The position numbers were made by a program, and so were the translations under genes. From the NCBI GenBank assembly GCA_964413015.1, contig CAYPQZ010000006.1:74415-138414 (forward strand): a DNA stretch of 64,000 bases, given 5' to 3'. The DNA comes from an uncultured Candidatus Saccharibacteria bacterium (GTDB taxonomy: Bacteria > Patescibacteriota > Minisyncoccia > Portnoybacterales > UBA2143). Positions 4,999 through 62,652 of this stretch are shown here, piece after piece (position 1 is the first letter of the stretch; each line of letters opens with the position of its first letter). The notes under the pieces are model-generated. The model saw nothing but the letters and a program-made list of their open reading frames with translations, was not told the DNA's origin and did not search any database.

Positions 4999-5007
4999 GA
5001 GACTAAA

Positions 5008-7043: not shown

Positions 7044-7045
7044 GT

Positions 7046-15739: not shown

Positions 15740-15743
15740 AAAT

Positions 15744-21506: not shown

Positions 21507-21742
21507 TTATTTAAGGATTGTCATTGAGGATTACGTCTCTTCGCCTTTGGCGAAGGGCGTGTCCGCCTGCCCGCCTCTGGAGGGAAAGGACGACTCCTTA
21601 AATTTTGACAAGGATAAACTGATAAGAACAGTCTTTAAAATGACGCCCTTGTGCTCAAGGGACATCATTTTAAGGACTGGCCTTATCATCATCTGTTCTT
21701 ATCGTATGACAATTCTTAAATTTTTAAAAGTCGACTGTTCTT
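21507..21742. repeat. Family-A modular repeat, full-length copy (L-module ... R hairpin)
   Basis: tttaaggattgtcattgaggattacgtc ... ccgcctctggagggaaaggacgactccttaaattttgacaagg ... ataagaacagtctttaaaatgacgcccttgtgctcaagggacatcattttaaggactggcctt. Confidence 0.85.
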
Positions 21743-31698: not shown

Positions 31699-31873
31699 TC
31701 AACCCAGTAGAAGAATTTTGAAACAAATTTTAACAAAGTTAAAATTTAAATTAAAAATATTCAAAATTTCTCTACTGGGTCAACCCAGAAGAAGAATTTT
31801 GAAATAAATTTTAACAAAGTTAAAATTTAAATTAAAAATATTCAAAATTTCTCTACTGGGTCAACCCAGAATC
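31699..31873. repeat. Family-B element, tandem 81-bp direct repeat x2.15 (cccagtag variant); each unit is a ~20-bp inverted-repeat hairpin
   Basis: Units 31699..31779 and 31780..31860 plus a partial third, of the form tcaacccagtagaagaattttgaaa...ttcaaaatttctctactggg. Confidence 0.85.
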
Positions 31874-39935: not shown

Positions 39936-41642
39936 GTGGGAAAATGGCCGACTGGCAAACAATGGACACGTTTTTTTAAAATTCTCACTTTTCGGGAACG
40001 CTGGATAGTCAGAAGCTTGATTTTTATCATTCTTGGCTCCTGTTTAACGTTGCTGATTCTCTTTTATCTTGAGAACACAATTATTGAACCTAGGATAGGC
40101 GGCGAATATCGGGAAGGCATTTTTGGTCAGCCAAGATATATTAACCCAGTCTTATCCCAGACGAACGATACTGACCGCGATCTGGTCCAGCTGATTTACT
40201 CAAGTTTGTTCAAATACGACAACCAAGGCAACCTTATCACCGACTTGGCCGAAAGATATGAAATCGGAGAAGAAGGTCTAGTTTACACTGTTTTTTTGAA
40301 AGAAAACGTTTATTGGCATAACGGAGAAAAATTTTCAGCTGATGATGTCATTTTTACCATTAAAACCATTCAGGACCCCGAATACAACAGTCCGCTAAGA
40401 AATATTTGGTTAGGAGTGGAAATTGAAAAAATTGATGAATTTACTGTTTCTTTTAAATTAAGCAGTATTTACGCTAATTTTCTCCACAATTTAACTGTTG
40501 GAATTTTGCCTAAGCATCTTTGGGCCGGTATTTCCGGACAGAATTTTCCTTTAGCGGTCTACAACCTCAAACCCATCGGTTCTGGTCCCTACAAATTCGA
40601 GGAATTTGCTAAAAATGAAGAAGGGCAAATTGAATCAATGGAATTAACTTACAACGAAAACTTTTATCTGTTATTTAAAGACAGGATCCAAGGCCCGTTT
40701 ATTAAAAAAATTATCTTTAAATTTTACAACAGTCAAGAATCGTTAACTAAAGCTTATCAACAAAGACAAATTGATGGATTGAGTTCTTTATCAACGTCCA
40801 ATCAGTCAAAAATCAGAAATAACCTTACCATTTACGAAATTAAGATGCCCATCTACTATGCTGTTTTCTTCAATCAGAATAAAAGCAAAGCTCTGGCTGA
40901 CAAGACTGTTCGAATGGCTTTAGCTTATGCAATTAATAAGGAAAAAATAATTGACGAAGTTCTTAACGGCAAAGGAACTCGGGTTGATTCACCTTTGCTG
41001 CCAAACTGGCCTAATTGCGCTTTGGAAACAAATATTTACGAGTTTGCCTTAGAGCACGCCCAGAATATTTTAGAAGCTGAGGGCTGGGTGGATTCGGACA
41101 ACGATAATATCAGAGAAAAGGAAGAAACCAAGCTTGAAATAGAAATGTTGGTTACTGATTGGTCTGAAATAAGAAGGACCGCTGAATTAATCAGAGAACA
41201 ATGGGAGAAAATCGGGGTTAAAATCAATTTAAAAATAGTTGAAGCGTCCGTTATTCAAAAGGATTATATCCGGCCTCGGGAATACCAAGCTCTTCTTTTC
41301 GGAGAAATTCTCGGCGCTGACCCGGACCCGTTCGCCTTTTGGCATTCCTCGCAAAAAAAAGACCCGGGCCTAAATCTATCCCTCTATCAAAACAAAGAAG
41401 TTGACAAACTGCTCCAAGATGCCCGGCAAACACTTGACCAGACCGTCCGCCAGGAAAAATACGCCGAATTTCAGAAGCTGTTGATTGAAGATATTCCCTG
41501 CATTTTTCTCTACAGCCCTAGCTACATTTACCCGGTTAATAAAAAAGTAAAAGGGATTTCCATAGAAAAAATGACTGAACCATCCCAAAGATTTTCTCAA
41601 GTAGAAAATTGGTACATCAAAACAAAAAGAATCTGGAAATAA
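39936..41642 (+). CDS. ABC transporter substrate-binding protein, family 5 (peptide/nickel)
   Basis: N-terminal anchor and an SBP_bac_5 fold with OppA/DppA-like patterns. Confidence 0.8.
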   Translation: MGKWPTGKQWTRFFKILTFRERWIVRSLIFIILGSCLTLLILFYLENTIIEPRIGGEYREGIFGQPRYINPVLSQTNDTDRDLVQLIYSSLFKYDNQGNLITDLAERYEIGEEGLVYTVFLKENVYWHNGEKFSADDVIFTIKTIQDPEYNSPLRNIWLGVEIEKIDEFTVSFKLSSIYANFLHNLTVGILPKHLWAGISGQNFPLAVYNLKPIGSGPYKFEEFAKNEEGQIESMELTYNENFYLLFKDRIQGPFIKKIIFKFYNSQESLTKAYQQRQIDGLSSLSTSNQSKIRNNLTIYEIKMPIYYAVFFNQNKSKALADKTVRMALAYAINKEKIIDEVLNGKGTRVDSPLLPNWPNCALETNIYEFALEHAQNILEAEGWVDSDNDNIREKEETKLEIEMLVTDWSEIRRTAELIREQWEKIGVKINLKIVEASVIQKDYIRPREYQALLFGEILGADPDPFAFWHSSQKKDPGLNLSLYQNKEVDKLLQDARQTLDQTVRQEKYAEFQKLLIEDIPCIFLYSPSYIYPVNKKVKGISIEKMTEPSQRFSQVENWYIKTKRIWK

Positions 41643-41644
41643 TT

Positions 41645-42361
41645 ATGAATCTAGAAAAAATTAAGCCGAATATCCGTTATCTGCTGGATATGAAAAAACT
41701 TCTTTTTGACCAGCCTTGGGCTGAAACAGCCCCCGATTTAGAGCTTTACTATATGTACCGTGACTTAGCAGAGAACGAGAAAGACAGAGAAGTCATAGCT
41801 AAAAATGGATTAAGATATGACATTACAGTAATGCCCTTTATTATGTTGGGCCGGGAATACAACAAAACAGCCGGTCATGATCATCCGTTGGTTCCTAAAA
41901 CCAATTTAACCTATCCAGAAATTTATGAAATTTTAGAAGGAGAAGCTGTTTTCCTTTTTCAGGATTCTCATGGAGACGAAATCAAGGATGTTTACGCGAT
42001 TCAGGCTAAAAAAAACGACAAAGTCATTGTTCCGCCTAATTACGAACATTTGATGATAAACATTTCCGTAGAAAAGCTAAAAACCGCCAATTGGGTTTGT
42101 CGGGAATTTGAATTCAATATTTACAAACCCTTCAGACAAAAACACGGATTTTGTTATTTTGCCCTTAAGAATGGCTCGCAGGAAATAGAATGGGTTAAAA
42201 ACAAAAATTATAGCTCAATTCCTGATTTAAGATTTTTAGAGCCGAATCAATGGTTGGAAAGGTTCAATATAGATGCCAAGAAAGACCTCTACTCCCTAAT
42301 TGAGAACTTAAAAAAACTGGATTTTCTTAAGAATCCGGAAATGCTCAAGGATTTAAAATAA
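41645..42361 (+). CDS. Cupin-type glucose-6-phosphate isomerase (cPGI-like)
   Basis: Cupin with TAGHDHP...PEIYEILEGEA..L.Q as in archaeal cPGI. The start is taken at MNLEKIKP, right after the upstream stop. Confidence 0.5.
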   Translation: MNLEKIKPNIRYLLDMKKLLFDQPWAETAPDLELYYMYRDLAENEKDREVIAKNGLRYDITVMPFIMLGREYNKTAGHDHPLVPKTNLTYPEIYEILEGEAVFLFQDSHGDEIKDVYAIQAKKNDKVIVPPNYEHLMINISVEKLKTANWVCREFEFNIYKPFRQKHGFCYFALKNGSQEIEWVKNKNYSSIPDLRFLEPNQWLERFNIDAKKDLYSLIENLKKLDFLKNPEMLKDLK

Positions 42362-42728: not shown

Positions 42729-42856
42729 CCCCGTAGAGAAATTTTGAAACATTCGCCTAGGCGAATAATAAACGGGGTAAAAAATAAGTACACGAATAAA
42801 AAGAGTTCCGAATAATTAAAAATTAGTGAATTTAAATTCAAAATTCTTCTACGGGG
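42729..42856. repeat. Family-B element (TIR ccccgtagagaaattttgaa ... ttcaaaattcttctacgggg)
   Basis: About 128 bp. The right TIR overlaps the first 3 nt of tRNA-Leu. gggcgag is found on both flanks. Confidence 0.8.
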
Positions 42857-47608: not shown

Positions 47609-47659
47609 ATTGACTATTCTAACTAAAAAACCACCTCGGGTCAAGGATTCAGCATAATT

Positions 47660-47826
47660 AAAGGACAGTCCTTAAAATGATGTCCCTTGAGCACAAGGGC
47701 GTCATTTTAAAGACTGTCCTTATCTGCTCCCCTTTGTCAAAATTTAAGGAGTCGTCCTTTCAAACACGCCCTTCGCAATTCTGCAAAGGGACGTGACTCT
47801 CAATGACAATCCTTAAATTTTTTAAT
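47660..47826. repeat. Family-A modular repeat, full copy in inverted orientation (R hairpin ... L-module)
   Basis: aaggacagtccttaaaatgatgtcccttgagcacaagggcgtcattttaaagactgtcctt...tcaaaatttaaggagtcgtcctttc...gacgtgactctcaatgacaatccttaaatttt. Confidence 0.85.
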
Positions 47827-47831
47827 GAACC

Positions 47832-48020
47832 TTACTCTTCCTTCTCAATCGCCTGAACTGGACAGATGTCTATAGCTTCTTGGACGCATTGGTCGTCTGC
47901 ATCTTCTTTCCCCTCTTTAATATGCGCTTTATTTTCGTTATCCATTTCAAAAACATCCGGGCAAACAGCTGTACAGCTGCCACAACCAAGACATTTTTCT
48001 TTGTCTATTTTTATACTCAT
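47832..48020 (-). CDS. 4Fe-4S ferredoxin (single-cluster type)
   Basis: CLGCGSCTAVCP...C pattern in a 62-aa protein. Confidence 0.7.
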   Translation of the reverse strand: MSIKIDKEKCLGCGSCTAVCPDVFEMDNENKAHIKEGKEDADDQCVQEAIDICPVQAIEKEE

Positions 48021-48022
48021 AC

Positions 48023-48158
48023 ACCGTAGAAGAATTTTGAATTTTAATCAATAACATTGATTAATAATCTAAGATTCTTCCTTATTTAATTATTCCTATA
48101 TACCCCGTTTTATTAAATTAAATATTTAATTTAATTATTTCAAAATTTCTCTACGGGG
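48023..48158. repeat. Family-B element (TIR caccgtagaagaattttgaa ... ttcaaaatttctctacgggg) with TCATA direct repeats on both flanks
   Basis: It fills the entire fdx-fba intergenic region. The left TCATA (48017..48021) carries the fdx start codon and the right TCATA (48159..48163) carries the fba stop codon. Confidence 0.85.
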
Positions 48159-49025
48159 TCATAATCTGTTATTGCTTTTAAATAATTTAATTTTTTCTTC
48201 AACGACCTTTTGGACCGTTTCGACTACCGACGGCATTATTTTATAAGGAGTAGTCTGTTTGGGATTCTCCTTTAGAAATTTCCTGAGCGCCTTGGCATAA
48301 GCAAGACGCAATTCCGTATTTACATTAATTTTAACGATTCCCGATTCAACAGCTTTCTGAATATCGTCTTCCGGAGTACCAGAGCCTCCATGAAGAACTA
48401 AAAAGACTTCTTTGCCTAAAACGCTATTGATTTCTTTTAGACGGTCTATGAAAAGATGAGGGTTGCCGGAAATATCATTCTTCTTAATAATTCCATGGAT
48501 ATTGCCAATAGCTATTGCTAAGCTTGTCACTCCTGTATTTTTAATAAATTCCTTGGCCTGCTTCGGCTTTGTCAAATCCTCTTCTTTGATTTCCATTGAT
48601 TCTTGCAAAGACGAACTGCCCCTTAAATAACCAATTTCACCTTCAACGTTTTGAATCCCTTTCCCCTTAGCTAAATTAACCACTTTCTTGGTCATCTTTA
48701 TGTTTTCCTCAAAGCTTAATTCTGAGCCGTCAAACTGGACAGAATCGTATCCGCTTTCAACCGCTTTTTGAATAATCTCCCATGACTTGCCGTGATCCAG
48801 ATGTAAAAAGATTGGCAAGCCGGTTTCTTTTTTGTAAACATTAATTAAAGCTCTAATCTGTCTTACTCCAATAAAATTACTTTCCCCTTGGGAAGTAGCG
48901 ACAATAACCGGACTTTCTAATTTTTGAGCAGCCTGAACAATCGCTTTCACTTGCTCTAAATTAGAGACATTAAAAGCCCCGATGGCATAATGATTAGTTT
49001 GCGCTTTTTTGAATACGTCTAACAT
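48159..49025 (-). CDS. fba: Fructose-bisphosphate aldolase class II
   Basis: Class II FBA pattern with HLDHG and VLHGGSG. Confidence 0.9.
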   Translation of the reverse strand: MLDVFKKAQTNHYAIGAFNVSNLEQVKAIVQAAQKLESPVIVATSQGESNFIGVRQIRALINVYKKETGLPIFLHLDHGKSWEIIQKAVESGYDSVQFDGSELSFEENIKMTKKVVNLAKGKGIQNVEGEIGYLRGSSSLQESMEIKEEDLTKPKQAKEFIKNTGVTSLAIAIGNIHGIIKKNDISGNPHLFIDRLKEINSVLGKEVFLVLHGGSGTPEDDIQKAVESGIVKINVNTELRLAYAKALRKFLKENPKQTTPYKIMPSVVETVQKVVEEKIKLFKSNNRL

Positions 49026-49033
49026 ATTTTTGA

Positions 49034-50299
49034 CTATTTGGGGACTGTTCCCAAAGTAACATAACCTTTATCTAAATTTTCCATCAGAGTTTTATCCAAC
49101 ATTTTTTCTCCCGCATATTCAATAAAAATTTTATTCCAAAGCGCTTCCGGCTGATGGTAAAGATACCTGTAATTAAAGTCCTTTTGATGAAGAAGTGAAA
49201 TCCCGTTATCAAATAAATCGAAACTGATTAAAGACTCTTGCCCGGAAGCATCAGAAAAATATTCGGCCAGAACATCTGAACCACGCCAAAAATCAAATCC
49301 CGAGTCAGGAAACTTTTGACTGAATTTATCAATACAGACAGCCGCTCTAGTATAATGCCAGGCCTCCGGACTGATATGGGGTTCGGCCAGCCTGGGATCG
49401 TCAGGATTCTTTTTGTCTAAATAGGCCGGCATCATCCGCCAACTCATTTTATTGCTATTAGGCAAGGGCATGTCGCTAACTTGGACTTTCAAAGCTTCGG
49501 TCATTTTATGAACAAAATCCCTTTCCTGGCTGTATTTTTCAAAAAGACGAGCGTGCCAGTCAACTTCGTAAGTATAGTGAAGTGTCATAAAAAAGTAATA
49601 TAGAGATTCATTAGGACGATCTTTAATCACCGGAATAATAAAAACAACGCCGACTTCCTTCAAATGGCTCATGTGATGGAATTTCTTTTCTAAAAATTCT
49701 TGCCCTTTGCCTGACCATCTTTTTGGCAAAACCATTATTCTAATCGGCCTTTTTTCAAAATCATCCTTTGTTAAATAAGTGTAGGCCTTAAAAAAAACCT
49801 TGTTCAGCCAATCGCCGTCTTCAACAAAACGCAAGGCGCAAAAAAGTTCAAAAACATCTTCTTTGTCTAGCATTTCATCAATCTTGTCTTCGTATCCCAG
49901 AATTCCCATAATTTTTTTAGGCGGGTTCAATCTGAACAATTCTTTAAGTTTCTCTTCTTTAATAAAAAAATCCGATAGATTACCAGTTAAATCTTTTATG
50001 GCGCTGATAAAATCCCGACAATCATCCGGATCGGAAAGATTAAACTGATTAAAATGGTTAAAAAGAAACTGGTTATTTTGCTTAGCTTTCTCAATTAAAG
50101 ATTGATAAATATCTTCAGCTTTTGAATTCCTGTCTAATCCTAAAATGGCCAATTTCTGGTCAATTTTAGAGTCATTCTCCTGAACAATTTTTTCAATTAT
50201 ATCCCTTTTGCCGAAAATTTCAGACATTTTATTTTCCAGATTCAAAATAACTTCTTCAGGAGCCCCCAATATTTTAGCTAATTTAGTAACTGGATTCAT
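49034..50299 (-). CDS. Hypothetical protein (421 aa) embedded in the glycolysis/PPP operon
   Basis: No motif I can assign. It is conserved-looking and sits between the pfkB kinase and fba. The start is taken at MNPVTK, directly after the pfkB stop. Confidence 0.4.
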   Translation of the reverse strand: MNPVTKLAKILGAPEEVILNLENKMSEIFGKRDIIEKIVQENDSKIDQKLAILGLDRNSKAEDIYQSLIEKAKQNNQFLFNHFNQFNLSDPDDCRDFISAIKDLTGNLSDFFIKEEKLKELFRLNPPKKIMGILGYEDKIDEMLDKEDVFELFCALRFVEDGDWLNKVFFKAYTYLTKDDFEKRPIRIMVLPKRWSGKGQEFLEKKFHHMSHLKEVGVVFIIPVIKDRPNESLYYFFMTLHYTYEVDWHARLFEKYSQERDFVHKMTEALKVQVSDMPLPNSNKMSWRMMPAYLDKKNPDDPRLAEPHISPEAWHYTRAAVCIDKFSQKFPDSGFDFWRGSDVLAEYFSDASGQESLISFDLFDNGISLLHQKDFNYRYLYHQPEALWNKIFIEYAGEKMLDKTLMENLDKGYVTLGTVPK

Positions 50300-51279
50300 A
50301 ATATTTCCACTTCCACCTTCTCCCATTCTCCCCATTCGCCTTTTTTAAGCAATCCGTTAGTCGCTCCCATTTTTTGTAAACAGGCAGTGGCATTAGCGGT
50401 GCCTAATTGGATAGCATGAGTAATATCGCCTTTGTCAATATATCCGGAGACAAAAGCGGCGCCGAAAGAATCACCGGCGCCAGTCCGATCGACCAGACCG
50501 GATTCCGGAATCCCGGCCGAATATAAGTTTTTACCGTCCGAAACGGTCACTCCGAGAGGGCCTTTATTCATAACCACAATTCCCTCAACCCATTCATCTA
50601 ATTTCTGAAAAATTTCTTTTTCTTTTTTAAAATCAATTCCAGTTAATTTAGACGATTCTTCCTGGTTAAGGATTAAAATATCAAGCTTATTAAGCACCGA
50701 CTTAAGGATTTCAGTATGCTCCGGCGTTTTAACGCTTCCTGCTGGATTAGAGGCTATTTTAATCCCGTTTTTCTTGCCAAAATCAACTAAAGGAACTAAC
50801 ATTTGATGGCTTTTATTAGATAAGGAAGAAACATAAAACCAGTCAGCTTTAAGTTCATCAAAAGGGATATCTTTCTCGGTTAATTCATGGCAAGCTCCAT
50901 ATTTTTCCAAGATGCTCCGGCCTTGGTCAGGCGCTGAGAGAATTACTGAAAAAGCGGTCGGAAACTTGTCTGATTCGACTAACAAATCAAGGCAAACTTG
51001 GTGTTGTCCCAATTCTTTTTTTACTTCCTGACCAAAAACATCCCGGCCAATCATGCCGTAATAGGCAGTTTTTAATCCCTGCTCGGCAAAACTGACCGCG
51101 CTGTTGGTCCCGCAGCCTCCCATAGTAAAAAGCACATCATCCATGTGCATTTTTGAGCCTAAAGGGATACAAAGTCCTTTCTTAGTGAAAAATTTTTCAT
51201 CCTCAACTATTTCTAACTTCCGGCTGCTCATGAAAATATCCAGAGTTGCCGAACCGAAAGTGATGATGTCGTAATTCAT
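50296..51279 (-). CDS. PfkB-family carbohydrate kinase (ribokinase/minor PFK-like)
   Basis: N-terminal GG di-glycine region and C-terminal GAGDSFGAAF. Confidence 0.75.
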   Translation of the reverse strand: MNYDIITFGSATLDIFMSSRKLEIVEDEKFFTKKGLCIPLGSKMHMDDVLFTMGGCGTNSAVSFAEQGLKTAYYGMIGRDVFGQEVKKELGQHQVCLDLLVESDKFPTAFSVILSAPDQGRSILEKYGACHELTEKDIPFDELKADWFYVSSLSNKSHQMLVPLVDFGKKNGIKIASNPAGSVKTPEHTEILKSVLNKLDILILNQEESSKLTGIDFKKEKEIFQKLDEWVEGIVVMNKGPLGVTVSDGKNLYSAGIPESGLVDRTGAGDSFGAAFVSGYIDKGDITHAIQLGTANATACLQKMGATNGLLKKGEWGEWEKVEVEIL

Positions 51280-51342
51280 AGCTTACACGAATCTTAAAAA
51301 TTTAAGGATTGTTATTAAAAACCATTAAGGGACTGTCCTTTA

Positions 51343-52311
51343 TCATTTCCTCTTGATGACTTTTAGAACTGCTTCTTTAATATCTTTTGCCACTAAACCG
51401 AATTCTTTCATTAGCTCATCCGGCTCGCCGGATTCGCCAAAGCGGTTCTGAATGCCAATCATTTCAATAGGCACCGGTTCATTTTTAGCTAAAACTTCCG
51501 CTACTGCGCTGCCTAAGCCACCCATTACCTGATGGTCTTCGCCAGTGACAATTGCTCCGGTCTGTTCAGCCGCTTTAATAATTTCCTCTTCGTCAATCGG
51601 CTTAATCGTATGATTGTTAATCACCCGCACATCAATTCCTTGTTTAGACAAACTCTCAGCGGCTAACAAAGCTTCATAGACAATCGGTCCACAGGCAATT
51701 ATGCTGACATCTCGCCCTTTTCGTAAAACTTCTGCCTGCCCGATTTTAAAAGGTGTCTTAGAAGTAGTAAAAATAGGCGTGGCTTCCCTAGCAAATCTTA
51801 AATAAACCGGTCCCTCTATTTTGCCTGCGGCCACAGTTGCTTTCTGCGTTTCAACAGCATCACAGGGAGCCAATACAGTCATATTCGGCAAACAGCGAGT
51901 AATCGCTATATCCTCTAATCCCTGATGAGTGGCTCCATCTGCGCCAACTGAAACCCCGGCATGGGCGCCGGTCATTTTCACATTGACGTTGTTATAGGCA
52001 ACAGATATTCTGATTTGGTCCCAGTTGCGTCCGGGGCAAAAAACGGAATAAGTTGAAACAAAAGGAATTTTGCCGGTGAGCGCTAATCCGGCCGCTACGC
52101 CAATCATATTTTGCTCGGCAATCCCACATTGAACAAATCTTTCCGGGAATTCATCACGGAACCAGTTACAGCGGGTTGAACCAGTTAAATCAGCTCCTAA
52201 AACAATTATGTTTTTATTCTCTTTAGCCAGTTCAACCAACCCTAAACCATAGCCGTCACGAGTCGGCTTTTTTTCTAACTTGCTTTTATTGTATAAATTT
52301 TTTGCTAGCAT
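51343..52311 (-). CDS. tktB: Transketolase, C-terminal subunit (pyrimidine-binding plus C-terminal domains)
   Basis: Pyrimidine-binding and C-terminal domain patterns. Split-gene arrangement. Confidence 0.85.
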   Translation of the reverse strand: MLAKNLYNKSKLEKKPTRDGYGLGLVELAKENKNIIVLGADLTGSTRCNWFRDEFPERFVQCGIAEQNMIGVAAGLALTGKIPFVSTYSVFCPGRNWDQIRISVAYNNVNVKMTGAHAGVSVGADGATHQGLEDIAITRCLPNMTVLAPCDAVETQKATVAAGKIEGPVYLRFAREATPIFTTSKTPFKIGQAEVLRKGRDVSIIACGPIVYEALLAAESLSKQGIDVRVINNHTIKPIDEEEIIKAAEQTGAIVTGEDHQVMGGLGSAVAEVLAKNEPVPIEMIGIQNRFGESGEPDELMKEFGLVAKDIKEAVLKVIKRK

Positions 52312-52335
52312 GTTTTAAAATGATATCTTTTAACG

Positions 52336-52505
52336 ATAAGGACATTCCTTAAAATGATGTCCCTTGAGCACAAGGGCGTCATTTTAAAGACTGTTCTTAT
52401 CAGTTTGTCTTATCTGTTTCCCCTTGTCAAAATTTAAGGAGTCGTCCTTTCCCTCCGGAGGCAGACATATGACAATCCTTAAATTTTTCAAAACTGTCCT
52501 TTAAC
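52336..52505. repeat. Family-A modular repeat, full copy (inverted orientation) between the two tkt halves
   Basis: aaggacattccttaaaatgatgtcccttgagcacaagggcgtcattttaaagactgttctt...ccccttgtcaaaatttaaggagtcgtcctttccctccggagg...atgacaatccttaaatttttcaaaactgtccttt. Confidence 0.85.
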
Positions 52506-52518
52506 TCAAAAAGCAAAA

Positions 52519-53367
52519 TCACTCGCTTTCGCTTTCAATCCGTCCACCCAATGTTCTTAATTCACTTAAGGCCTCCTGGGCCTGCTTTTTGTCAGGCACC
52601 TTGCCATGCCAGGAATACTGCCATTTAATGAAATCAACTCCCTTGCCGGGTATAGTATGGGCAATAATTAAACTTGGTTTTTCAAAAATCGCTTTTGACT
52701 TATGACAGGCATCAATAATCTCTTCTATATTGTGTCCGTCCACATCCATAACGTGCCAGCCAAAAGCTTCGTATTTTTCCTTTAATGGCTCCAAAGGCAT
52801 AACATCTTCGGTATAACCGTCAATCTGAATATTGTTTCGGTCCATAATCTGAGTGATGTTAAAAAGTTTGTATTTACCGGCAAACATAGCTGCCTCCCAC
52901 ATTGAACCCTCGTCATGCTCTCCATCTGAAGTCAAGGCCCAAACCCAATTATCTTTCTTATCAAGTTTAGCAAAGTTATAGGCCATACCGCAGGCAATTT
53001 GCAATCCCTGGGCCAAGGAGCCTCCGGAAGTTTCTATACCGGGCACGCCCTGCCGACAAGGATGGCCCTGCAGAATGCTGCCCAGTTTGCGCAGGGTTTT
53101 AAGCTCTTTTTTATCAAAATAACCAGCATGTGCCAGAACAGCATACCAAACTGGACAAATATGGGCATTAGAAATCACCACGTAATCACGCTCCGACCAA
53201 TTCGGTTTTTTAGAATTGTATTTAATTACTCCTCCGAAATACAAGGCAGTCAGAACATCAGCCATGCCTAAAGAGCCGGCTGAATGACCCGACTTGGCTT
53301 CAGTCAGCATATCAATCAAATCTTTTCTAATATCGTTGGCTTTTTTTTCTAATTCTTTAGTATCCAT
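52519..53367 (-). CDS. tktA: Transketolase, N-terminal subunit (TPP-binding)
   Basis: GH.G..LG and the TPP-binding GDG...EG motifs. Confidence 0.85.
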   Translation of the reverse strand: MDTKELEKKANDIRKDLIDMLTEAKSGHSAGSLGMADVLTALYFGGVIKYNSKKPNWSERDYVVISNAHICPVWYAVLAHAGYFDKKELKTLRKLGSILQGHPCRQGVPGIETSGGSLAQGLQIACGMAYNFAKLDKKDNWVWALTSDGEHDEGSMWEAAMFAGKYKLFNITQIMDRNNIQIDGYTEDVMPLEPLKEKYEAFGWHVMDVDGHNIEEIIDACHKSKAIFEKPSLIIAHTIPGKGVDFIKWQYSWHGKVPDKKQAQEALSELRTLGGRIESESE

Positions 53368-53417
53368 ATATTAAAATGGCTAAATCGTCAAAAGTTGTTT
53401 TCTTGATATTTTTTTGT

Positions 53418-54050
53418 TTAATGACATATTTTTAAATCTTCAATTGCTTTTCTAGGATTGTCGCTTTTAAAAATTGCGCTGCCGCTAGCTAAAAGATTGG
53501 CCCCGGCCCGGATAACCAACGGAGCGGTTTTTGGGTTTATGCCCCCATCCACTTCTATATTAACATCTTTATACTTCTTTCGCAATTGCTTAATTTTCCC
53601 CAGAGTTTCTTCTATCAAATCTTGGCCTCCCTGGCCGGGATTGACTGTCATAACTAAAACCAAATCAAGGTCTTGGATAAAGTTATCCACTGTTTCTATC
53701 GGCGTTTCTGGACTAATCGCCAAGCCGAATTCCAGGCCGGCTTGTTTAATCTTTTTTATTATTTCTTTGTGCTGGTTCGTTGATTCATAATGGATAATAA
53801 TTCGCTCAACTCCAGAATCAATCCACTGGTCAACTTCTTCTTCAGGATTCCGGACCATTAAATGAACCTCTATATTCAAATCGGTTTCCAAATCTTTTAA
53901 CTCAATCGGATCGCCCCAAGTTTGATTATTTACAAAATGACCGTCCATTACGTCTAACTGTACCCAATCAACATATGGCTCTACTTTCTTTATTCTGGAC
54001 TTCAACTCCTCAAAGCTTTCAACCATGATAACAGGGATAATCTGAATCAT
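53418..54050 (-). CDS. rpe: Ribulose-phosphate 3-epimerase
   Basis: LDVMDGHFV, MTVNPGQGGQ and VDGGIN. Confidence 0.9.
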   Translation of the reverse strand: MIQIIPVIMVESFEELKSRIKKVEPYVDWVQLDVMDGHFVNNQTWGDPIELKDLETDLNIEVHLMVRNPEEEVDQWIDSGVERIIIHYESTNQHKEIIKKIKQAGLEFGLAISPETPIETVDNFIQDLDLVLVMTVNPGQGGQDLIEETLGKIKQLRKKYKDVNIEVDGGINPKTAPLVIRAGANLLASGSAIFKSDNPRKAIEDLKICH

Positions 54051-54484
54051 TGTTCCATTTCCTCTATTTTATTTAATCTTCTAACATGTCTTTCATCGCC
54101 GCTAAATTCTGTTTTTATCCAGATCCGGACAATTTTCTTGGCAGTCTCTGAATCCACTATTTTACTCCCCAGACAAAGTACATTGGCATTATTATGTTCC
54201 CTTGACTGTAAAGCGGTAAAATCATCCCAGCAAACGGCTGCCCGGACTCCTTTCATTTTATTAGCCGCCATGGCCATGCCAAATCCAGTAGCGCAAATTA
54301 AAATCCCTTGCCCGTTATTTTCAACTGTTTTTTCAGCTACTGCTGAAGCAAAATCAGGATAGTCATCCTCCAATTCCAACTTTTTATTCCCTAAATCTTC
54401 ATATTCATGCCCTAATTCCTCAAGATATTTCTTGAGTTCTTCCTTTAGATTAAAACCGGCATGGTCAGCGCCTAAATAAATCAT
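54047..54484 (-). CDS. rpiB: Ribose-5-phosphate isomerase B
   Basis: MIYLGADHAGF..K and CATGFGMAMAANK. Confidence 0.9.
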   Translation of the reverse strand: MIYLGADHAGFNLKEELKKYLEELGHEYEDLGNKKLELEDDYPDFASAVAEKTVENNGQGILICATGFGMAMAANKMKGVRAAVCWDDFTALQSREHNNANVLCLGSKIVDSETAKKIVRIWIKTEFSGDERHVRRLNKIEEMEQ

Positions 54485-54485
54485 A

Positions 54486-54621
54486 CCCCGTAGAAGAATT
54501 TTGAATTCTAATCAATTTTATCGATTAGCAATCTAAAAAATTTTCACTTAATTATTTATAGAACGCCCCGTTTTATTAAATTAAATCAAAGATTTAATTG
54601 TTTCAAAATTTCTCTACGGGG
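54486..54621. repeat. Family-B element (TIR ccccgtagaagaattttgaa ... ttcaaaatttctctacgggg) with TCATA direct repeats on both flanks
   Basis: It fills the rpiB-gap intergenic region. The left TCATA (54481..54485) contains the rpiB start and the right TCATA (54622..54626) contains the gap stop. Confidence 0.85.
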
Positions 54622-55602
54622 TCATAGTTTTTTCCCAATAAACTCTGCAAATTCAGCCAAGCGGCAGGCGTATCCATATTCATTATCATACCAGGCCAAA
54701 ACCTTAACCAATTTTTTCTCTTGAACCATGGTTGAAGCCGCATCAACAATTGCGGAGAAAGAACTCCCTTTGTAATCAACCGAAACTAATGGACTTTCTT
54801 CAACTCTTAAAATCCCTTTTAAATTATCCTGTTCTGAGGCCTTTTTAAAAGCAATGTTAATTCCTTCAACATCCGTTTCTTTTTTAACTTTAGCTACAAA
54901 ATCAACCAACGAAACAACCGGGGTAGGAACCCTTATGGCCAAACCGTGAATTTTGCCTTTTAGTTCAGGGATTGTTTTTATTACAGCAATTGCTGCTCCA
55001 GTAGTCGTCGGGACCATTGACAGGGCCGCTGAACGAGCCCGGCGCAAATCCTTTCGATGAGGAGAATCCAAAAGCTTCTGGTCATTGGTATAACTATGGA
55101 TCGCAGTCATTAAACCGGACTCTATCTCGAATTCCTGATGAAGAATATTGGCTATAGGAGCCAGACAATTAGTCGTACATGACGCCATAGAGACAATATT
55201 ATCTTTTTCAGGGTTATAATTTTCTTGGTTAACGCCTAAAACAAAATGAGGCATAGCCTCACTTTTAGAAGGAGCTGAAATAATAACTTTTTTAGCTCCA
55301 GCTGATAAATGTTTTTGGGCATCTTCTATTTTGGTAAACAGGCCGGTGCATTCCAGGACCACATCCACTTCCATTTTCCCCCACGGCAGCTTAGCCGGAT
55401 CTTTTTCAGCTAAAACTTTATCTTCCGGTAAAGGATTCTCATATTTTCCGTAAACCGAATCATATTTTAATAGATGAGCCAAAGTTTTGGCGTCGGTTAA
55501 ATCATTAATCGCGACTATCTCTAAATTCGGATGTTTGTCCAGAATCCTACGAAAAACTGGCCGGCCAATTCGGCCAAACCCATTAATTGCGATTTTAATC
55601 AT
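54622..55602 (-). CDS. gap: Glyceraldehyde-3-phosphate dehydrogenase
   Basis: INGFGRIGR and ASCTTNCLAP. Confidence 0.95.
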   Translation of the reverse strand: MIKIAINGFGRIGRPVFRRILDKHPNLEIVAINDLTDAKTLAHLLKYDSVYGKYENPLPEDKVLAEKDPAKLPWGKMEVDVVLECTGLFTKIEDAQKHLSAGAKKVIISAPSKSEAMPHFVLGVNQENYNPEKDNIVSMASCTTNCLAPIANILHQEFEIESGLMTAIHSYTNDQKLLDSPHRKDLRRARSAALSMVPTTTGAAIAVIKTIPELKGKIHGLAIRVPTPVVSLVDFVAKVKKETDVEGINIAFKKASEQDNLKGILRVEESPLVSVDYKGSSFSAIVDAASTMVQEKKLVKVLAWYDNEYGYACRLAEFAEFIGKKL

Positions 55603-55721: not shown

Positions 55722-55982
55722 TTATTCTTTAATATTTAAAAGTTGACAGATTCTTGCCCGGTCAAAACCAACAATAATTTCTCCGTTTATTTCAATAACC
55801 GGAACGCCCATCTGGCCGGACCGCTGGACCATTTCTTCACCCGCCCTGATGTCCTCGGCTACATTAATATCCTCATACTGTAAACCGTGTTCATCTAGGA
55901 AGGCCTTTAAAGTATAGCAATAAGCGCAGGAGGGCGCTGAAAAGACACGGATATAGTGATTTGTTTTTCCTTCTTGAGCCAT
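55722..55982 (-). CDS. Glutaredoxin-like (NrdH/Grx) thioredoxin-fold protein
   Basis: CAYC active site in an 86-aa protein. Confidence 0.6.
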   Translation of the reverse strand: MAQEGKTNHYIRVFSAPSCAYCYTLKAFLDEHGLQYEDINVAEDIRAGEEMVQRSGQMGVPVIEINGEIIVGFDRARICQLLNIKE

Positions 55983-55988
55983 TCTTAA

Positions 55989-56897
55989 TTAAGATAAATA
56001 TTCAGAAGCGCTTATAGCCGCTTTAGCTCCTTCGCCGGCTGCAATAATAATTTGTTTATGGAAAACATCGGTGACATCACCGGCTGCGAAAATTCCCGGA
56101 CAGGAAGTCATGTTTCTAAAATCTGTTTTAATTTCTCCTTCTTTATTTAATTCTACCACACTTTTAACAAAATTAGAAATAGGGACTGAGCCGATTTCTA
56201 TATAAACTCCTTCAACGGACATTTTTTTCTCTTCTTGAGAAATCTTATCACGATAGACTAAGCCGGTTACAAACTTATTCCCCTGAATTTTTTCAACCTG
56301 AACATTAAATAATATTTTAATATTTGAAGCGGCTTTAATTTTTTCCTGTTCAACTTTATCAATCCTTAGTTTTGGATTCAAAGCCAAAAGATAAATTTCC
56401 GAAGCGTATTCAGAAGTTTCCAAAGCTGCTTCAGCTGCGGCGTTGCCGCCGCCAATTACAGCTACTTTTTTATTAGCAAAAAGAGGCGCGTCGCAGGTAG
56501 CACAAAAGCTGACCCCTTTGCCAATAAACTCTTCTTCACCCGGCACACCCAATTTTTTGGGGCCCTTGCCGCTGGCAATAATTAAAGATTTTCCCTGATG
56601 CTTGTCCCCGTTAACAGATATAACCTCAAATTCTAAGCCTGCCTTTTTAACTTCCTTGATTTCTTGGTTCTCTTTAATCTCTAAATCAAATTTTTTCAGG
56701 TGGGTAATAAATTTATGGACTAATTCCGCGCCCGAGATAGAATTAAAACCCAAATAATTTTCTATTCGGGCCGCTTCGTTCATCTGGCCTCCCCATTCCT
56801 TGACCAGTAAAAGGAGATTTAATTTTTTTCGGGCTGCGTAGATGCCGGCGCTTAAAGCCGCCGGTCCGCCGCCGATAATGATAATATCGTAAATCAC
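55989..56897 (-). CDS. trxB: Thioredoxin-disulfide reductase
   Basis: GGGPA FAD motif, CATC redox-active disulfide, and NAD(P)-binding GGGNAA. Confidence 0.9.
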   Translation of the reverse strand: MIYDIIIIGGGPAALSAGIYAARKKLNLLLLVKEWGGQMNEAARIENYLGFNSISGAELVHKFITHLKKFDLEIKENQEIKEVKKAGLEFEVISVNGDKHQGKSLIIASGKGPKKLGVPGEEEFIGKGVSFCATCDAPLFANKKVAVIGGGNAAAEAALETSEYASEIYLLALNPKLRIDKVEQEKIKAASNIKILFNVQVEKIQGNKFVTGLVYRDKISQEEKKMSVEGVYIEIGSVPISNFVKSVVELNKEGEIKTDFRNMTSCPGIFAAGDVTDVFHKQIIIAAGEGAKAAISASEYLS

Positions 56898-58264
56898 TTT
56901 TCTAATTTTAACAGGGCGTCTTGGGCCGCCGCGATTAAGGGATAAACCGTCGGGGCTGAAGTCAGCAACGGATGACTGGCTATCTGCCAGGTATTAAAAT
57001 CATAAAGTGTCGCCTGGTGCTGAATTGCCATGGCTACTGCATTAATCATTTCACCAACGCTAACTGGCCCCATAATTTCTCCTCCAAGCAGCAATCCTTC
57101 TGAAGATTTGGAAAAAATTAATTTAACCCCTATTAACTCAGCGCCGGGCAATTTTCCAGGATGACGATTGAGCGCTTTGGCTTCGCCAATCACATATTCA
57201 AACTTCTCTTCTTTAGCTCTAGTTTCAGTTAAGCCGGCAGCCGCCAAAGTTAAGCCGTTAAGATAGGTTGAAAAAACTCCCAAAGTTCCTTTGTTTTCCC
57301 GAATTAATTTTATATGGTACAAGTTGCTGGCGGCAATTCTGGCTTCACTGGCCGCCACCGAAGCCAGCATGACTGGAATATTCTTGCCAGTTATGAAATC
57401 CCTGGTTTGAGCGCAATCGCCGATAGCCAGAATATCCGGCTGACTGGTTTTCATATATTCATCAACCCAAATGCCTCCTTTTTCTTCAACTTTTATTCCG
57501 GCTTCTTGGGCTAGCTTAATATTCGGCCGGGCGCCAATTGATAAAATTACTAAATCAGCCGGGATTTTCTTGCCGTCAGCCAATTCTAAATATTCTACTT
57601 TGTCCTGTCCGCTAACTTCTTTTATTTTTACGCCGGCATATATATCAATGCTTTTGTCTTTTAGCCTTTCTTCGGCTGCCTTTGCGAATTCCTCGTCAAA
57701 ATTAGTCAGCAGACAATGTTCCATCATTTCAAAAATACTAACTTTCAAGTTTTTTAGGCTGCTCAATTCTTCGGCCAATTCCACCCCGATAAAACCGCCA
57801 CCGATAATAGCAATGTTTTTTGCATTTTTAGCCGCTTCTCTTAATTTCTCTAAATACTCGTGATCCTTTTTTACCTGCCAAACGCCCGACTTATCTAATC
57901 CGGGGATAGGGACTAAATGCGATTCAGAGCCCAAGGCCAAAACCAGTTTATCATATTGGTAAACATTTTTATCTTTCAGAATGACCGTTTTCTTTTCCGA
58001 ATCAAGCTTAATCGCTTCGCCCGTAATTAAATCAACCTGATTGTCAATCAAGGACTGGCTGGACATTATATTATCCTCAACTGAATTTAACCGGTCAAAA
58101 ATATATGGGATGCCGCAGGGAATTACCTCTTTCTCTTCTTTCCTAACTAAACTGACCTTTTTGTCAGGATAATTTTTTCTGGTTGTCACAGCAGCCACTA
58201 TACCGGCTGGCCCGCCGCCAATAATTAAAATATCTGTTTTATTCATATAGCTATATATTATCAC
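56894..58264 (-). CDS. FAD-dependent pyridine nucleotide-disulfide oxidoreductase, NADH oxidase/CoA-disulfide reductase family
   Basis: A single redox Cys in VIPCGIPYIF (Nox/CoADR-type), two Rossmann motifs and a dimerisation domain. ATGA overlap with trxB. Confidence 0.7.
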   Translation of the reverse strand: MIIYSYMNKTDILIIGGGPAGIVAAVTTRKNYPDKKVSLVRKEEKEVIPCGIPYIFDRLNSVEDNIMSSQSLIDNQVDLITGEAIKLDSEKKTVILKDKNVYQYDKLVLALGSESHLVPIPGLDKSGVWQVKKDHEYLEKLREAAKNAKNIAIIGGGFIGVELAEELSSLKNLKVSIFEMMEHCLLTNFDEEFAKAAEERLKDKSIDIYAGVKIKEVSGQDKVEYLELADGKKIPADLVILSIGARPNIKLAQEAGIKVEEKGGIWVDEYMKTSQPDILAIGDCAQTRDFITGKNIPVMLASVAASEARIAASNLYHIKLIRENKGTLGVFSTYLNGLTLAAAGLTETRAKEEKFEYVIGEAKALNRHPGKLPGAELIGVKLIFSKSSEGLLLGGEIMGPVSVGEMINAVAMAIQHQATLYDFNTWQIASHPLLTSAPTVYPLIAAAQDALLKLEK

Positions 58265-59343: not shown

Positions 59344-59478
59344 GCCCCGTAGAAGAACTTTGACATTCACCTTAAATATCAAAATCTTAATTAATGTTTT
59401 TAATTTATTCTGTGTTTATACACCCCGTATGTCTATTTATTCGCCTTGGGCGAATGAGTCAAAGTTTCTCTACGGGGC
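59344..59478. repeat. Family-B element (TIR gccccgtagaagaactttga ... tcaaagtttctctacggggc)
   Basis: Lies between the dsbA-like start and the mtaD-like stop. The internal palindrome ttcgccttgggcgaa is shared with the 42729 copy. Confidence 0.8.
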
Positions 59479-61692: not shown

Positions 61693-62652
61693 CTACTTAA
61701 CTAAATTAGGCGGGGTTTGGCTTTCTAAAGCTGCAATAACATTATTGGCAGCCATTTCAGCCATTTTGTCTCTAGTCCCTAAAGTTGCTGAAGCTATATG
61801 AGGCGTTAAAACAACATTTTCTAAATCGGTTAAACCAGGCGCCAATTCCGGCTCATTCTCAAAAACATCTAAAGCCGCTCCGGCAATTTTCTTTTCTTTT
61901 AATACTTCTACCAAAGCCACTTCATCAATAATTGGACCACGGGAAGTATTGATTAAATAGGCGCTCGGTTTCATTAGAGCTAACTTTTCCGCGCTGATTA
62001 AATGGCGAGTTTCGTCTGTCAAAGCGGTATGCAAACTCACAAAATCTGATTCTTTTAATAAATCGTCTAATTCCCGGTATTTCATGCCAAATTTTTCTTC
62101 TAATTCCTGATTGCGTTTAAGGTCGTAATAAATAATTTTAACATTGAAACCATTCTGCATCCGTTGAGCCACCGCTGAACCAATTCTCCCTAATCCAATA
62201 ATTCCCAGCGTTTTCCCTTGAATATCAGCTCCTAAAAGCATTTTAGGACCCCAAGCTTTATATTTGCCAGCCCTGACAAACTGATCTGCTTCAACGATTC
62301 TTTCGGCAATAGAAAAAAGAAAAGCAATTGTATGTTCAGCCACCGCTTCAGTTAAAACGCCCGGCGTATTAGTTACCAGAATCTCTCTCTTTTTAGCTTC
62401 AGCCACATCAATATTGTTATAACCAACCGCGTAATTGGCAATAATTTTTAACTGTTCCCCAGCCGCTTCCATAACTTCTCCATCTATCTTTTCAGTTAAA
62501 ACCGACAAAATCGCCTCAACTCCTTTAACTTTTTCCAATAATTCTTCTCTGGAGATTTCCCCTTCCGGGCCAACTTCAACTTCCCAGTTTTTATCTTTTA
62601 ACATTTTGATTCCTTTTTCAGGAATTTGACGAGTAATAAATACTTTTGGCAT
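61693..62652 (-). CDS. D-isomer-specific 2-hydroxyacid dehydrogenase (glyoxylate/hydroxypyruvate reductase-like)
   Basis: GIIGLGRIGSAVAQRM Rossmann motif and a catalytic R..E..H pattern. Confidence 0.8.
   Translation of the reverse strand: MPKVFITRQIPEKGIKMLKDKNWEVEVGPEGEISREELLEKVKGVEAILSVLTEKIDGEVMEAAGEQLKIIANYAVGYNNIDVAEAKKREILVTNTPGVLTEAVAEHTIAFLFSIAERIVEADQFVRAGKYKAWGPKMLLGADIQGKTLGIIGLGRIGSAVAQRMQNGFNVKIIYYDLKRNQELEEKFGMKYRELDDLLKESDFVSLHTALTDETRHLISAEKLALMKPSAYLINTSRGPIIDEVALVEVLKEKKIAGAALDVFENEPELAPGLTDLENVVLTPHIASATLGTRDKMAEMAANNVIAALESQTPPNLVK

Follow-up and report, generated by a model that had tools for sequence, protein, structure and literature searches.

A protein family of the candidate phyla radiation encoded among transketolase, PfkB-family kinase and aldolase genes

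A sugar-phosphate operon with one unassigned gene

The stretch of contig CAYPQZ010000006.1 analysed here (64 kb, hereafter the window) carries nine co-directional minus-strand open reading frames (ORFs) that fill positions 47832–55602 and follow each other in the order gap, rpiB, rpe, tktN, tktC, pfkB, X, fba and fdx, where X denotes a 421-aa protein belonging to an uncharacterised family found throughout the candidate phyla radiation (CPR). The ORF listing agrees with searches against Pfam and NCBIfam on the nine genes of the original prediction, and these libraries identify eight of them, X being the sole one without a match. The first gene of the sugar-phosphate block, gap (54622–55602), encodes a type I glyceraldehyde-3-phosphate dehydrogenase (GAPDH; PF00044 and PF02800; TIGR01534 with 411.5 bits against a cutoff of 367) and is followed by rpiB for ribose-5-phosphate isomerase B (54047–54484; PF02502; TIGR01120 with 161.6 bits against 138.7) and by rpe for ribulose-phosphate 3-epimerase (53418–54050; PF00834; NF004076 with 201.9 bits against 165), with an overlap of 4 nt at the stop between rpe and rpiB. 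A split transketolase comes next, its N-terminal, ThDP-binding half being encoded by tktN (52519–53367; PF00456, E = 2e-48) and its C-terminal half, comprising the pyrimidine-binding and C-terminal domains, by tktC (51343–52311; PF02779 and PF02780). The PfkB-family sugar kinase gene (50296–51279; PF00294, E = 7e-37), the gene for X (49034–50299), fba for a class II fructose/ketose-bisphosphate aldolase (48159–49025; PF01116, E = 1e-89; TIGR00167) and fdx for a ferredoxin with a single [4Fe-4S]/[3Fe-4S] cluster (47832–48020; PF13370, E = 1e-15) complete the operon. Its earlier description as lower glycolysis holds for GAPDH only, as PfkB and the fructose-1,6-bisphosphate (FBP) aldolase belong to upper glycolysis.

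The ATG of X overlaps the TGA of pfkB (ATGA) and is preceded by the Shine-Dalgarno-like GGTGGA, and 8 nt separate the stop of X from the start of fba. Because homologues begin at MNPVTKLAK, we preferred the 421-aa start over that of a longer 433-aa ORF. In line with the noted absence of a classical phosphofructokinase (PFK), a Pfam scan of nearly every ORF in the window with 110 aa or more found no PfkA-type PFK and likewise no fructose-1,6-bisphosphatase (FBPase), transaldolase or triose-phosphate isomerase (TPI). The CPR, or Patescibacteria, account for a large share of bacterial diversity, and their metabolic reconstructions repeatedly show a broken upper glycolysis and pentose phosphate pathway (PPP), with PFK, transaldolase, FBPase or sedoheptulose-1,7-bisphosphatase (SBPase) and the oxidative branch reported as gaps that are usually patched by a stoichiometrically unbalanced 'PPP bypass'. 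Many CPR genomes are reported to lack PFK, and a complete Microgenomates genome was reported to lack transaldolase and FBPase in addition to PFK (PMC7143001). Among the complete Saccharibacteria genomes of another analysis, only one is reported to have a transaldolase (PMC6031116), and CPR were reported to have no SBPase (PMC6389311).

Beyond the lack of a Pfam or NCBIfam match for X itself, no Pfam family recurred among X and 51 homologues (52 sequences), even at E ≤ 10. PHROGs and PADLOC gave zero matches for X and two distant homologues, and phmmer searches of the PDB sequences with X or with a 36-sequence profile returned nothing meaningful. X is no member of PF00316, PF03320 (GlpX), PF06874, PF00459 or PF01950, and hidden Markov models (HMMs) place it neither in the phosphofructokinase families PfkA (PF00365), PfkB (PF00294) and ADP-PFK (PF04587), whose kinase fold it does not share, nor in the transaldolase/fructose-6-phosphate (F6P) aldolase family PF00923, an invariant Schiff-base lysine being absent as well. 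The same applies to LOG and the N-ribohydrolases (PF03641, PF01156 and PF04227), and the motifs GGGxGxM and PGGxGTxxE do not occur in the X domain. Members of the X clusters are all named 'hypothetical protein', so that the presence of X in TM7x was not confirmed from these names, and a literature search via TM7x locus tags brought up nothing on X.

An AlphaFold2 model of X made from 36 homologues is confident (pLDDT 93.4, pTM 0.92) and starts with about 105 residues of helical structure, after which comes a mostly helical core that includes a small sheet. Neither the full model, searched with Foldseek against the PDB and BFVD, found a match at E ≤ 0.001 (best PDB entry at E = 0.2 with a TM below 0.2), nor did the core alone (residues 106–421), and the fold shows no similarity to solved FBPases, inositol monophosphatases (IMPases) or histidine phosphatases. 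As the core-only model is less confident around D364, the N-terminal helices belong to the X fold. The absence of any assignable family noted earlier therefore stands for sequence and fold alike in every library searched, including the AlphaFold and Foldseek check that had been proposed.

Homologues of X amount to 1067 matches among clusters formed at 90 % identity, and a profile of the family searched against 1.84 billion representatives retrieved 744 clusters (50 % identity) at E ≤ 1e-3, 202 of them at E ≤ 1e-30. All members that carry a taxon name are Patescibacteria, from the Parcubacteria lineages Portnoy-, Yanofsky-, Taga-, Wolfe-, Lipton- and Sungbacteria and Spechtbacterales as well as from Kerfeldbacteria and Saccharimonadales. 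Across 24 complete operons, the median identity to the window protein is 51 % for X and 58–73 % for the flanking enzymes. Being as widespread as transketolase and aldolase, nearly as conserved, and devoid of a known relative, X is an obvious but unexamined piece of the CPR puzzle.

Residue conservation was scored over the 52-sequence set, which reaches down to 19 % identity. E182, D364, P127, F181 and P223 are invariant, E160, D180, R184 and E215 are kept in 96–98 % and E245 in 90 % of the sequences, and E147, E312, H308, K114, H208, H241, R157, K214, H212 and H382 follow at 71–88 %, together with about a dozen conserved aromatic residues. No lysine is invariant (K214 is found in 41 of the 52), a glycine-rich motif is absent and conserved glycines are few. 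The best-conserved positions are carboxylates, histidines and an arginine clustered in the C-terminal core, while the N-terminal helical region is less conserved. Such a pattern suggests an active site, the simplest reading being a metal site made of several carboxylates together with basic residues that bind phosphate; multi-metal sugar-phosphate phosphatases typically combine several carboxylates with basic residues. In our assessment X is likely to be a real, previously unclassified, CPR-specific and probably metal-dependent enzyme that acts on a phosphorylated sugar in the transketolase/PfkB/FBP-aldolase network. An X-like segment corresponding to residues 60–276 was also seen in a protein of 1799 aa (P0251) that contains a methyltransferase domain and a helix-turn-helix (HTH), which may reflect stop-codon read-through or a gene-calling artefact, or else a genuine multidomain protein.

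A non-catalytic X that regulates, scaffolds or helps to assemble PfkB or the aldolase, or that controls the operon by sensing sugar phosphates, would be in keeping with its tight translational coupling to pfkB, with the lack of a recognisable catalytic fold and with a less conserved N-terminal helical region that the model requires for confidence around D364. We nevertheless hold this to be very unlikely, since the residues that hardly vary are carboxylates, histidines and an arginine of the buried type, as in active sites, X is a protein of 415–430 aa conserved nearly as well as the neighbouring enzymes, and at least 13 loci with good flanks contain X without pfkB. The N-terminal helices span 9–22 residues, mostly too long for an HTH, and no HTH-like match was found. 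The regulator considered in the original prediction is thus improbable, and a transcription regulator in particular was rejected on the grounds of the active-site-like residues and of N-terminal helices unlike an HTH.

Genomic context of X in 172 loci

We read 172 X loci from species-representative genomes, metagenomes and exact look-ups, with flanks of 8–10 kb, and annotated them with profiles built from the window's own proteins. The context of X is kept across these loci down to about 20 % identity, so that neither an unconserved neighbourhood nor a family unrelated to carbohydrate metabolism, which together would have spoken against a role in this pathway, was encountered. Parcubacteria show the order (trxR-grx)-gap-rpiB-rpe-tktN-tktC-pfkB-X-aldolase-fdx-L25 (arrangement A) and Saccharimonadales the order (PPase-NUDIX)-gap-rpiB-rpe-tktN-tktC-aldolase-pfkB-X-LOG (arrangement B), PPase standing for a soluble inorganic pyrophosphatase. 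Among the 153 loci having such a neighbour, pfkB lies directly upstream of X in 124, with a median gap of 33 nt, and an FBP aldolase gene directly downstream in 96 of 153. X is detached from the PPP genes in 25 loci, which keep pfkB in 20 and an aldolase in 12 cases, and the pair pfkB-X stands without a nearby aldolase gene in 10 loci. The fdx gene follows the aldolase gene in most Parcubacteria-type loci; restricted to this arrangement, it looks like synteny and not like the redox link once suggested for it. Small genes of the N_methyl (type IV pilin-like) type are repeatedly inserted into the operon, even directly on either side of X, and one such family (F7) counts 42 copies in 25 loci, for instance at 6955–8017 and 9241–9768 of L002 and in many other Parcubacteria loci.

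Three further arrangements, which are rarer but tell the most, lack the kinase gene. The Kerfeldbacteria operon (arrangement C, L093) combines genes for a class I FBPase and a DeoC-family aldolase with rpiB, rpe, tktN, tktC, X and a 2-hydroxyacid dehydrogenase gene, and contains no pfkB, other kinase or transaldolase gene. Arrangement D (L092 and L102) comprises rpiB, rpe, a PF00923 transaldolase/F6P aldolase (FSA) gene, tktN, tktC, four unrelated genes, an IMPase-family phosphatase gene, X and a dehydrogenase gene, where the stop of the IMPase-family gene abuts the start of X in the slot usually held by pfkB. In arrangement F, seen in a single lineage (L126, L131, L132 and L172), tktN is followed by X, and tktC, pfkB and an aldolase gene are absent within 8 kb; its flanks carry genes for a conserved membrane protein, a PrsW-like membrane protease and Hsp20. 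This adjacency of tktN and X might hint at a connection of X with transketolase or ThDP. With pfkB missing from all three arrangements, we rejected X as an obligate PfkB subunit.

Arrangement D also bears on the idea that X could be a non-homologous transaldolase, catalysing C3 transfer between sedoheptulose-7-phosphate (S7P)/glyceraldehyde-3-phosphate (G3P) and erythrose-4-phosphate (E4P)/F6P. This enzyme is missing from nearly all X operons, none being seen in 170 of the 172 loci, and from most Saccharibacteria genomes (PMC6031116), and X accompanies transketolase, with adjacencies to both tktN and tktC. Yet the two loci of arrangement D hold a bona fide PF00923 transaldolase/FSA gene in the X operon itself, a Schiff-base mechanism is unlikely given that no lysine is invariant, and X detached from the PPP genes remains with pfkB and not with tkt, which leaves this function highly improbable, the least so favoured of all that we considered.

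A 2-hydroxyacid dehydrogenase (2-Hacid_dh) gene occurs in 27 of the 172 loci and directly adjoins X in seven (L091–L093, L102, L147, L169 and L173). In the window, a D-2-hydroxyacid dehydrogenase (PF02826 and PF00389) is encoded at 61693–62652 on the minus strand; the comparison that found Pyrococcus glyoxylate reductases to be the closest relatives, at E = 8e-83, concerns the X-adjacent enzyme of L092 and not the window copy. X could accordingly serve a reaction tied to this glyoxylate/hydroxypyruvate-reductase-type dehydrogenase, as a kinase at the glycerate or triose level, as an isomerase, or in repair of metabolites of a triose/C2 branch, and the compact IMPase-X-dehydrogenase unit of L092 and L102, four unrelated genes away from the PPP genes, would suit such a role. 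Most X loci, however, have no dehydrogenase gene, which may simply supply a fermentative, NAD-regenerating enzyme to a central-carbon operon, and no known pathway leads from there to PfkB, aldolase and transketolase, so that we rate this option as rather improbable.

Several familiar enzymes of the pathway were set aside on context as well. A cupin-type glucose-6-phosphate isomerase (PGI) is encoded in the window at 41609–42361 on the plus strand (PF06560, E = 6e-39), 6 kb off the operon, and the same family is found near X in 17 related loci, for which reason X was rejected as a PGI. X as TPI was rejected because tpiA is annotated in TM7x (PMC12815258), though X is unconfirmed in that genome. 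X as the sole FBPase was likewise rejected, a canonical class I FBPase gene being present in the X operon of L093.

Partner enzymes and the possible reaction of X

The PfkB-family gene stays under every NCBIfam equivalog cutoff. It scores 103.9 bits against the ribokinase model TIGR02152 (cutoff 299.65), matches ribose-1-phosphate kinase models weakly at 66–67 bits, and reaches 55.6 bits over its C-terminal half only against the Pfk-2 subfamily model TIGR03168 (cutoff 216.4); its best solved relatives are ribokinases, at a mere E = 1e-14. In an alignment of 71 CPR orthologues that included E. coli RbsK and Pfk-2, the ribokinase substrate residues were lost, N14 being replaced by T and K43 by G, C or T and E143 falling into a deletion. 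A ribokinase identity was rejected on the basis of this score and these losses. An invariant lysine (Lys43, in 71 of 71 orthologues) aligns with Lys27 of E. coli Pfk-2, a residue that contacts the 6-phosphate of F6P; Arg90 of Pfk-2 is lost, and an invariant lid arginine, Arg121, lies near Pfk-2 Arg105. Since the ribokinase residues are lost and the equivalent of Lys27 is invariant, the gene probably encodes a 1-kinase for phosphosugars (F6P/S7P) and not a ribokinase. The same view was taken in a recent study of TM7x, where a ribokinase-annotated, seemingly orthologous gene beside an aldolase gene has been predicted to be a PfkB-type PFK and is glucose-induced (PMC12815258).

The fba product is a class II ketose-bisphosphate aldolase by PF01116 (300.8 bits) and the cbbA subfamily model TIGR00167 (284.4 bits against a cutoff of 215.6) and stays below the FBP aldolase (FBA) equivalog cutoff of TIGR01859 (293.7 against 343 bits), its closest solved structures being AgaY and class II FBAs. 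Three non-homologous aldolase types alternate in the operon, namely class II (PF01116), DhnA-type class Ia (PF01791; 13–16 loci) and classical class I (PF00274). Loci with such a swap in the slot after X are L009–L012, L014, L018, L019, L025, L029, L038 and others, with the exchanged genes of L088 and L089 at 7249–8295 and 4205–5248, respectively. We read this alternation between related CPR genomes as non-orthologous displacement within one operon, which would make FBP/SBP-type cleavage (SBP, sedoheptulose-1,7-bisphosphate) the conserved activity.

A missing or alternative step beside PfkB and FBA, as it had originally been proposed for X, remains the most economical reading, albeit position alone is no argument for a step that feeds FBA, because no chemical step is needed between PFK and FBA. 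In view of the gaps reported for CPR and of the SBP routes in the literature, PfkB and aldolase together with transketolase, Rpe and RpiB look like a transaldolase-free shunt. In clostridia, PFK and aldolase replace transaldolase by a route through SBP (PMC7029132), and Bacillus methanolicus uses an SBPase variant in which GlpX acts as SBPase and FBA as SBP aldolase (PMC7092467). In the CPR operon, PfkB would phosphorylate F6P and S7P, the aldolase would interconvert FBP with dihydroxyacetone phosphate (DHAP) and G3P as well as SBP with DHAP and E4P, X would hydrolyse SBP to S7P, and transketolase, Rpe and RpiB would carry out the remaining interconversions, resulting in a transaldolase-independent shunt that links hexose, triose and pentose phosphates. 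Catalysis, metal binding and the substrate of X, as well as the direction of flux, are what we infer here from sequence and gene order.

Tentatively, we therefore put forward X as an SBP 1-phosphatase of a new structural class that possibly also accepts FBP. This assignment, which retains the phosphatase among the earlier suggestions except in the simple form of an only FBPase, explains the two commonest neighbours of X, pfkB and the aldolase gene, along with the scarcity of transaldolase, and the conserved acidic cluster of X fits it. The Kerfeldbacteria operon, with an FBPase and neither kinase nor transaldolase, would need a separate SBPase to complete a Calvin-type rearrangement, which agrees with an SBP phosphatase. 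FBPase activity occurs in five unrelated classes, a precedent that makes a sixth plausible.

A number of observations weigh against an SBP phosphatase. The assignment is drawn from context, X sharing no fold similarity with FBPases, IMPases or histidine phosphatases, and an extra SBPase looks dispensable in L093, where a class I FBPase gene coexists with X, and in L092 and L102, where transaldolase and IMPase-family phosphatase genes do. A phosphatase translationally coupled to a kinase would run the risk of a futile cycle unless X were specific for SBP. X also follows tktN alone in four loci, and ten pfkB-X pairs have no nearby aldolase gene. The model leaves unexplained a link to LOG: a LOG phosphoribohydrolase gene adjoins X in all seven Saccharimonadales loci examined, and three clusters of X::LOG fusions with a C-terminal LOG domain exist (P0174, at 8001–9977 of L084, P0447 and P0464), which are 53–65 % identical to each other and have the LOG motifs GGGxGxM and PGGxGTxxE and all conserved X residues intact. 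Sister genomes of these fusions encode X and LOG as adjacent genes, either co-directional or convergent. NUDIX genes are found within the operon (L002) or beside it, and a soluble inorganic pyrophosphatase gene just upstream of it in Saccharimonadales; NUDIX and LOG genes together suggest a flux from nucleotide ribose to trioses that would need no phosphatase.

These genes lead to the close rival of the SBP phosphatase, and the two models stand ahead of the others. X could be an N-ribohydrolase or related enzyme that acts on scavenged nucleos(t)ides to free ribose or ribose-5-phosphate, in parallel or in series with LOG, and feeds RpiB, Rpe and transketolase, a role that we consider possible but doubtful. 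The divergence of the three fusion clusters with both domains intact favours it, as does the finding that X stays whichever enzyme serves the F6P/FBP/S7P node, be it PfkB, FBPase or transaldolase with an IMPase, while rpiB, rpe and tkt accompany it in most arrangements. The IMPase-family gene that abuts X in L092 and L102 might point the same way, as both enzymes could make 5'-NMP, and the invariant E182 and D364 with the conserved aromatic residues would fit a glycosidase-like site. A distribution confined to CPR matches the dependence of these bacteria on nucleoside scavenging (PMC5113843). On the other hand, the LOG link is found in Saccharimonadales only and may be frozen synteny, LOG being convergent in some loci, whereas pfkB and the aldolase gene are the most widespread partners and are those retained by PPP-detached loci. 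A hydrolase followed by a ribokinase is a weak version of the model, as PfkB has lost the residues with which ribokinases bind their substrate. The Kerfeldbacteria operon can run only towards pentoses and would be a strange place for a ribose supplier, and X is unlike the LOG, inosine-uridine nucleoside hydrolase (IU-NH), PsuG and DNPH1 families.

The demands of transaldolase-free pentose catabolism, which needs F6P and S7P 1-kinase activities while E. coli PfkA is poor on S7P (PMC7029132), make two kinases conceivable in one operon. X could then be a second phosphoryl-transfer enzyme, the true or an additional F6P/S7P 1-kinase alongside PfkB, dependent on ATP or pyrophosphate (PPi) and possibly reversible. 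It adjoins PfkB, aldolase and transketolase, K114, R157, R184 and K214 together with acidic positions offer possible ligands for two phosphates and Mg, and a reversible enzyme would be useful in PfkB-type and FBPase-type operons alike. The absence of a glycine-rich or other recognisable nucleotide-binding motif, with few conserved glycines, and of a fold likeness to any PDB kinase makes this unlikely. A soluble pyrophosphatase speaks against PPi-dependent glycolysis, and its gene upstream of the operon argues against such a mode in Saccharimonadales. What probability remains belongs to explanations that we have not thought of.

Compared with known systems, the clusters of transaldolase-independent SBP routes contain a comparable set of PFK-type kinase, FBP/SBP aldolase, transketolase, Rpe and Rpi without transaldolase, and the CPR operon likewise has a slot for one more bisphosphate enzyme. 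It differs in its kinase, a divergent PfkB-family member instead of PfkA or a PPi-PFK, and in X, which resembles neither GlpX, class I FBPase, IMPase nor the histidine phosphatase Shb17, is known from genes alone and is retained where the operon already has an FBPase or transaldolase. FBPase classes I–V (Fbp, GlpX, YydE-type, IMPase/FBPase and FBP aldolase/phosphatase) share with X the many carboxylates accompanied by Arg, Lys and His, keep similar genomic company with aldolase, transketolase, Rpe and GAPDH, as in cbb and ribulose monophosphate (RuMP) clusters, and represent an activity notorious for unrelated folds. In contrast to them, X has no HMM match or Foldseek match to solved FBPases, and FBPase or IMPase genes coexist with it.

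Among ribose-releasing systems, LOG/PpnN (PF03641) is linked to X by its canonical domain that adjoins or fuses with X in Saccharimonadales and by an operon that consumes its product, ribose-5-phosphate, and PsuG is paired with PsuK as X is with a PfkB-family kinase. X is nonetheless unlike LOG, PsuG, IU-NH and DNPH1, its LOG link is lineage-specific and its kinase has no ribokinase residues. Halophilic archaea possess a non-carboxylating pentose bisphosphate pathway made up of nucleoside phosphorylase, a PfkB-type ribose-1-phosphate kinase, ribose-1,5-bisphosphate (R15P) isomerase, ribulose-1,5-bisphosphate (RuBP) phosphatase, ribulose-1-phosphate (Ru1P) aldolase and a reductase. The CPR operon has a similar cast of PfkB-family kinase, middle enzyme, aldolase, phosphatases in some lineages and reductase-type dehydrogenase, but differs in its full RpiB/Rpe/transketolase set for ribose and its FBP-type aldolases. 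CPR bacteria using a bisphosphate route carry an eIF2B-like R15P isomerase, to which X is unrelated.

X most probably catalyses a known type of reaction without being homologous to the known enzymes for it, in an operon of a known kind, with a substantial chance that its fold or activity is categorically new. That X founds a new enzyme fold and performs its central carbon reaction by a route not seen outside CPR, as a new class of sugar-bisphosphate phosphatase or phosphotransferase or as a new N-ribosyl-cleaving enzyme through which scavenged nucleotides would directly enter a transaldolase-free PPP, appears to us slightly favoured over the contrary. A new phosphatase, phosphotransferase or N-ribosyl-cleaving enzyme would resolve the CPR gap of missing PFK, transaldolase and FBPase, and a new-fold enzyme would add a further non-orthologous displacement in core metabolism and alter models of CPR energy and ribose metabolism. 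As the family is present in Saccharimonadales, an order some of whose members are cultured and accessible to genetics, a direct test of the question may be feasible.

Repeat elements and further features of the window

The larger intergenic gaps of the operon are filled by two repeat families, each occurring twice in the operon and elsewhere in the window, which bears out the earlier remark that the gene series is broken by repeat elements only. Element A has a length of about 165 nt and a perfect hairpin core, AAAATGATGTCCCTTGAGCACAAGGGCGTCATTTT. Its copy at 52335–52506, between tktN and tktC, is 93–97 % identical to that at 47658–47825, between fdx and the L25 gene. The core is present in six near-identical copies in the window, with 0 expected, the others lying at 21637, 33554, 45475 and 61499. 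One copy of element A thus comes between the transketolase halves. The element looks REP/MITE-like (repetitive extragenic palindrome or miniature inverted-repeat transposable element), or like a common structure for regulation or termination.

Element B, of about 150 nt, has an AT-rich centre flanked by the inverted arms CCCCGTAGAAGAATTTTGAA and TTCAAAATTTCTCTACGGGG. The copy between gap and rpiB (54481–54633) is 86–87 % identical to the one between fba and fdx (48017–48170). Its arms give 11 matches in the window against 0.02 expected, and further copies were located at 31703–31860, as two tandem units, and at 42729–42856, with a lone arm at 59345. By its sequence layout, the architecture of element B can be described as MITE-like.

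Immediately upstream of gap, at 55722–58264, the window encodes a glutaredoxin/NrdH-like protein, a flavoprotein resembling thioredoxin reductase and, with 456 aa, a second pyridine-nucleotide-disulfide oxidoreductase. In most Parcubacteria loci the trxR-grx pair shows synteny with the operon. A tyrosine recombinase of the phage-integrase family followed by a PD-(D/E)XK/Cas4-like nuclease is encoded at 14798–16883, where GC skew and gene orientation change sign (about 16–17 kb), and could represent a mobile-element remnant or a replication-related landmark.

A protein identical to X is on record as hypothetical under 'Firmicutes bacterium ML8_F2', a bin that originates from Mahoney Lake and has a G+C content of 46.6 % (PMC4846661). 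The split transketolase, the cupin PGI, the pilin-like inserts in relatives and all named X homologues point to Parcubacteria. As the window has a G+C content of about 38 % and all named relatives of X are Patescibacteria, the contig labelled ML8_F2 is probably a mis-binned Parcubacteria contig.

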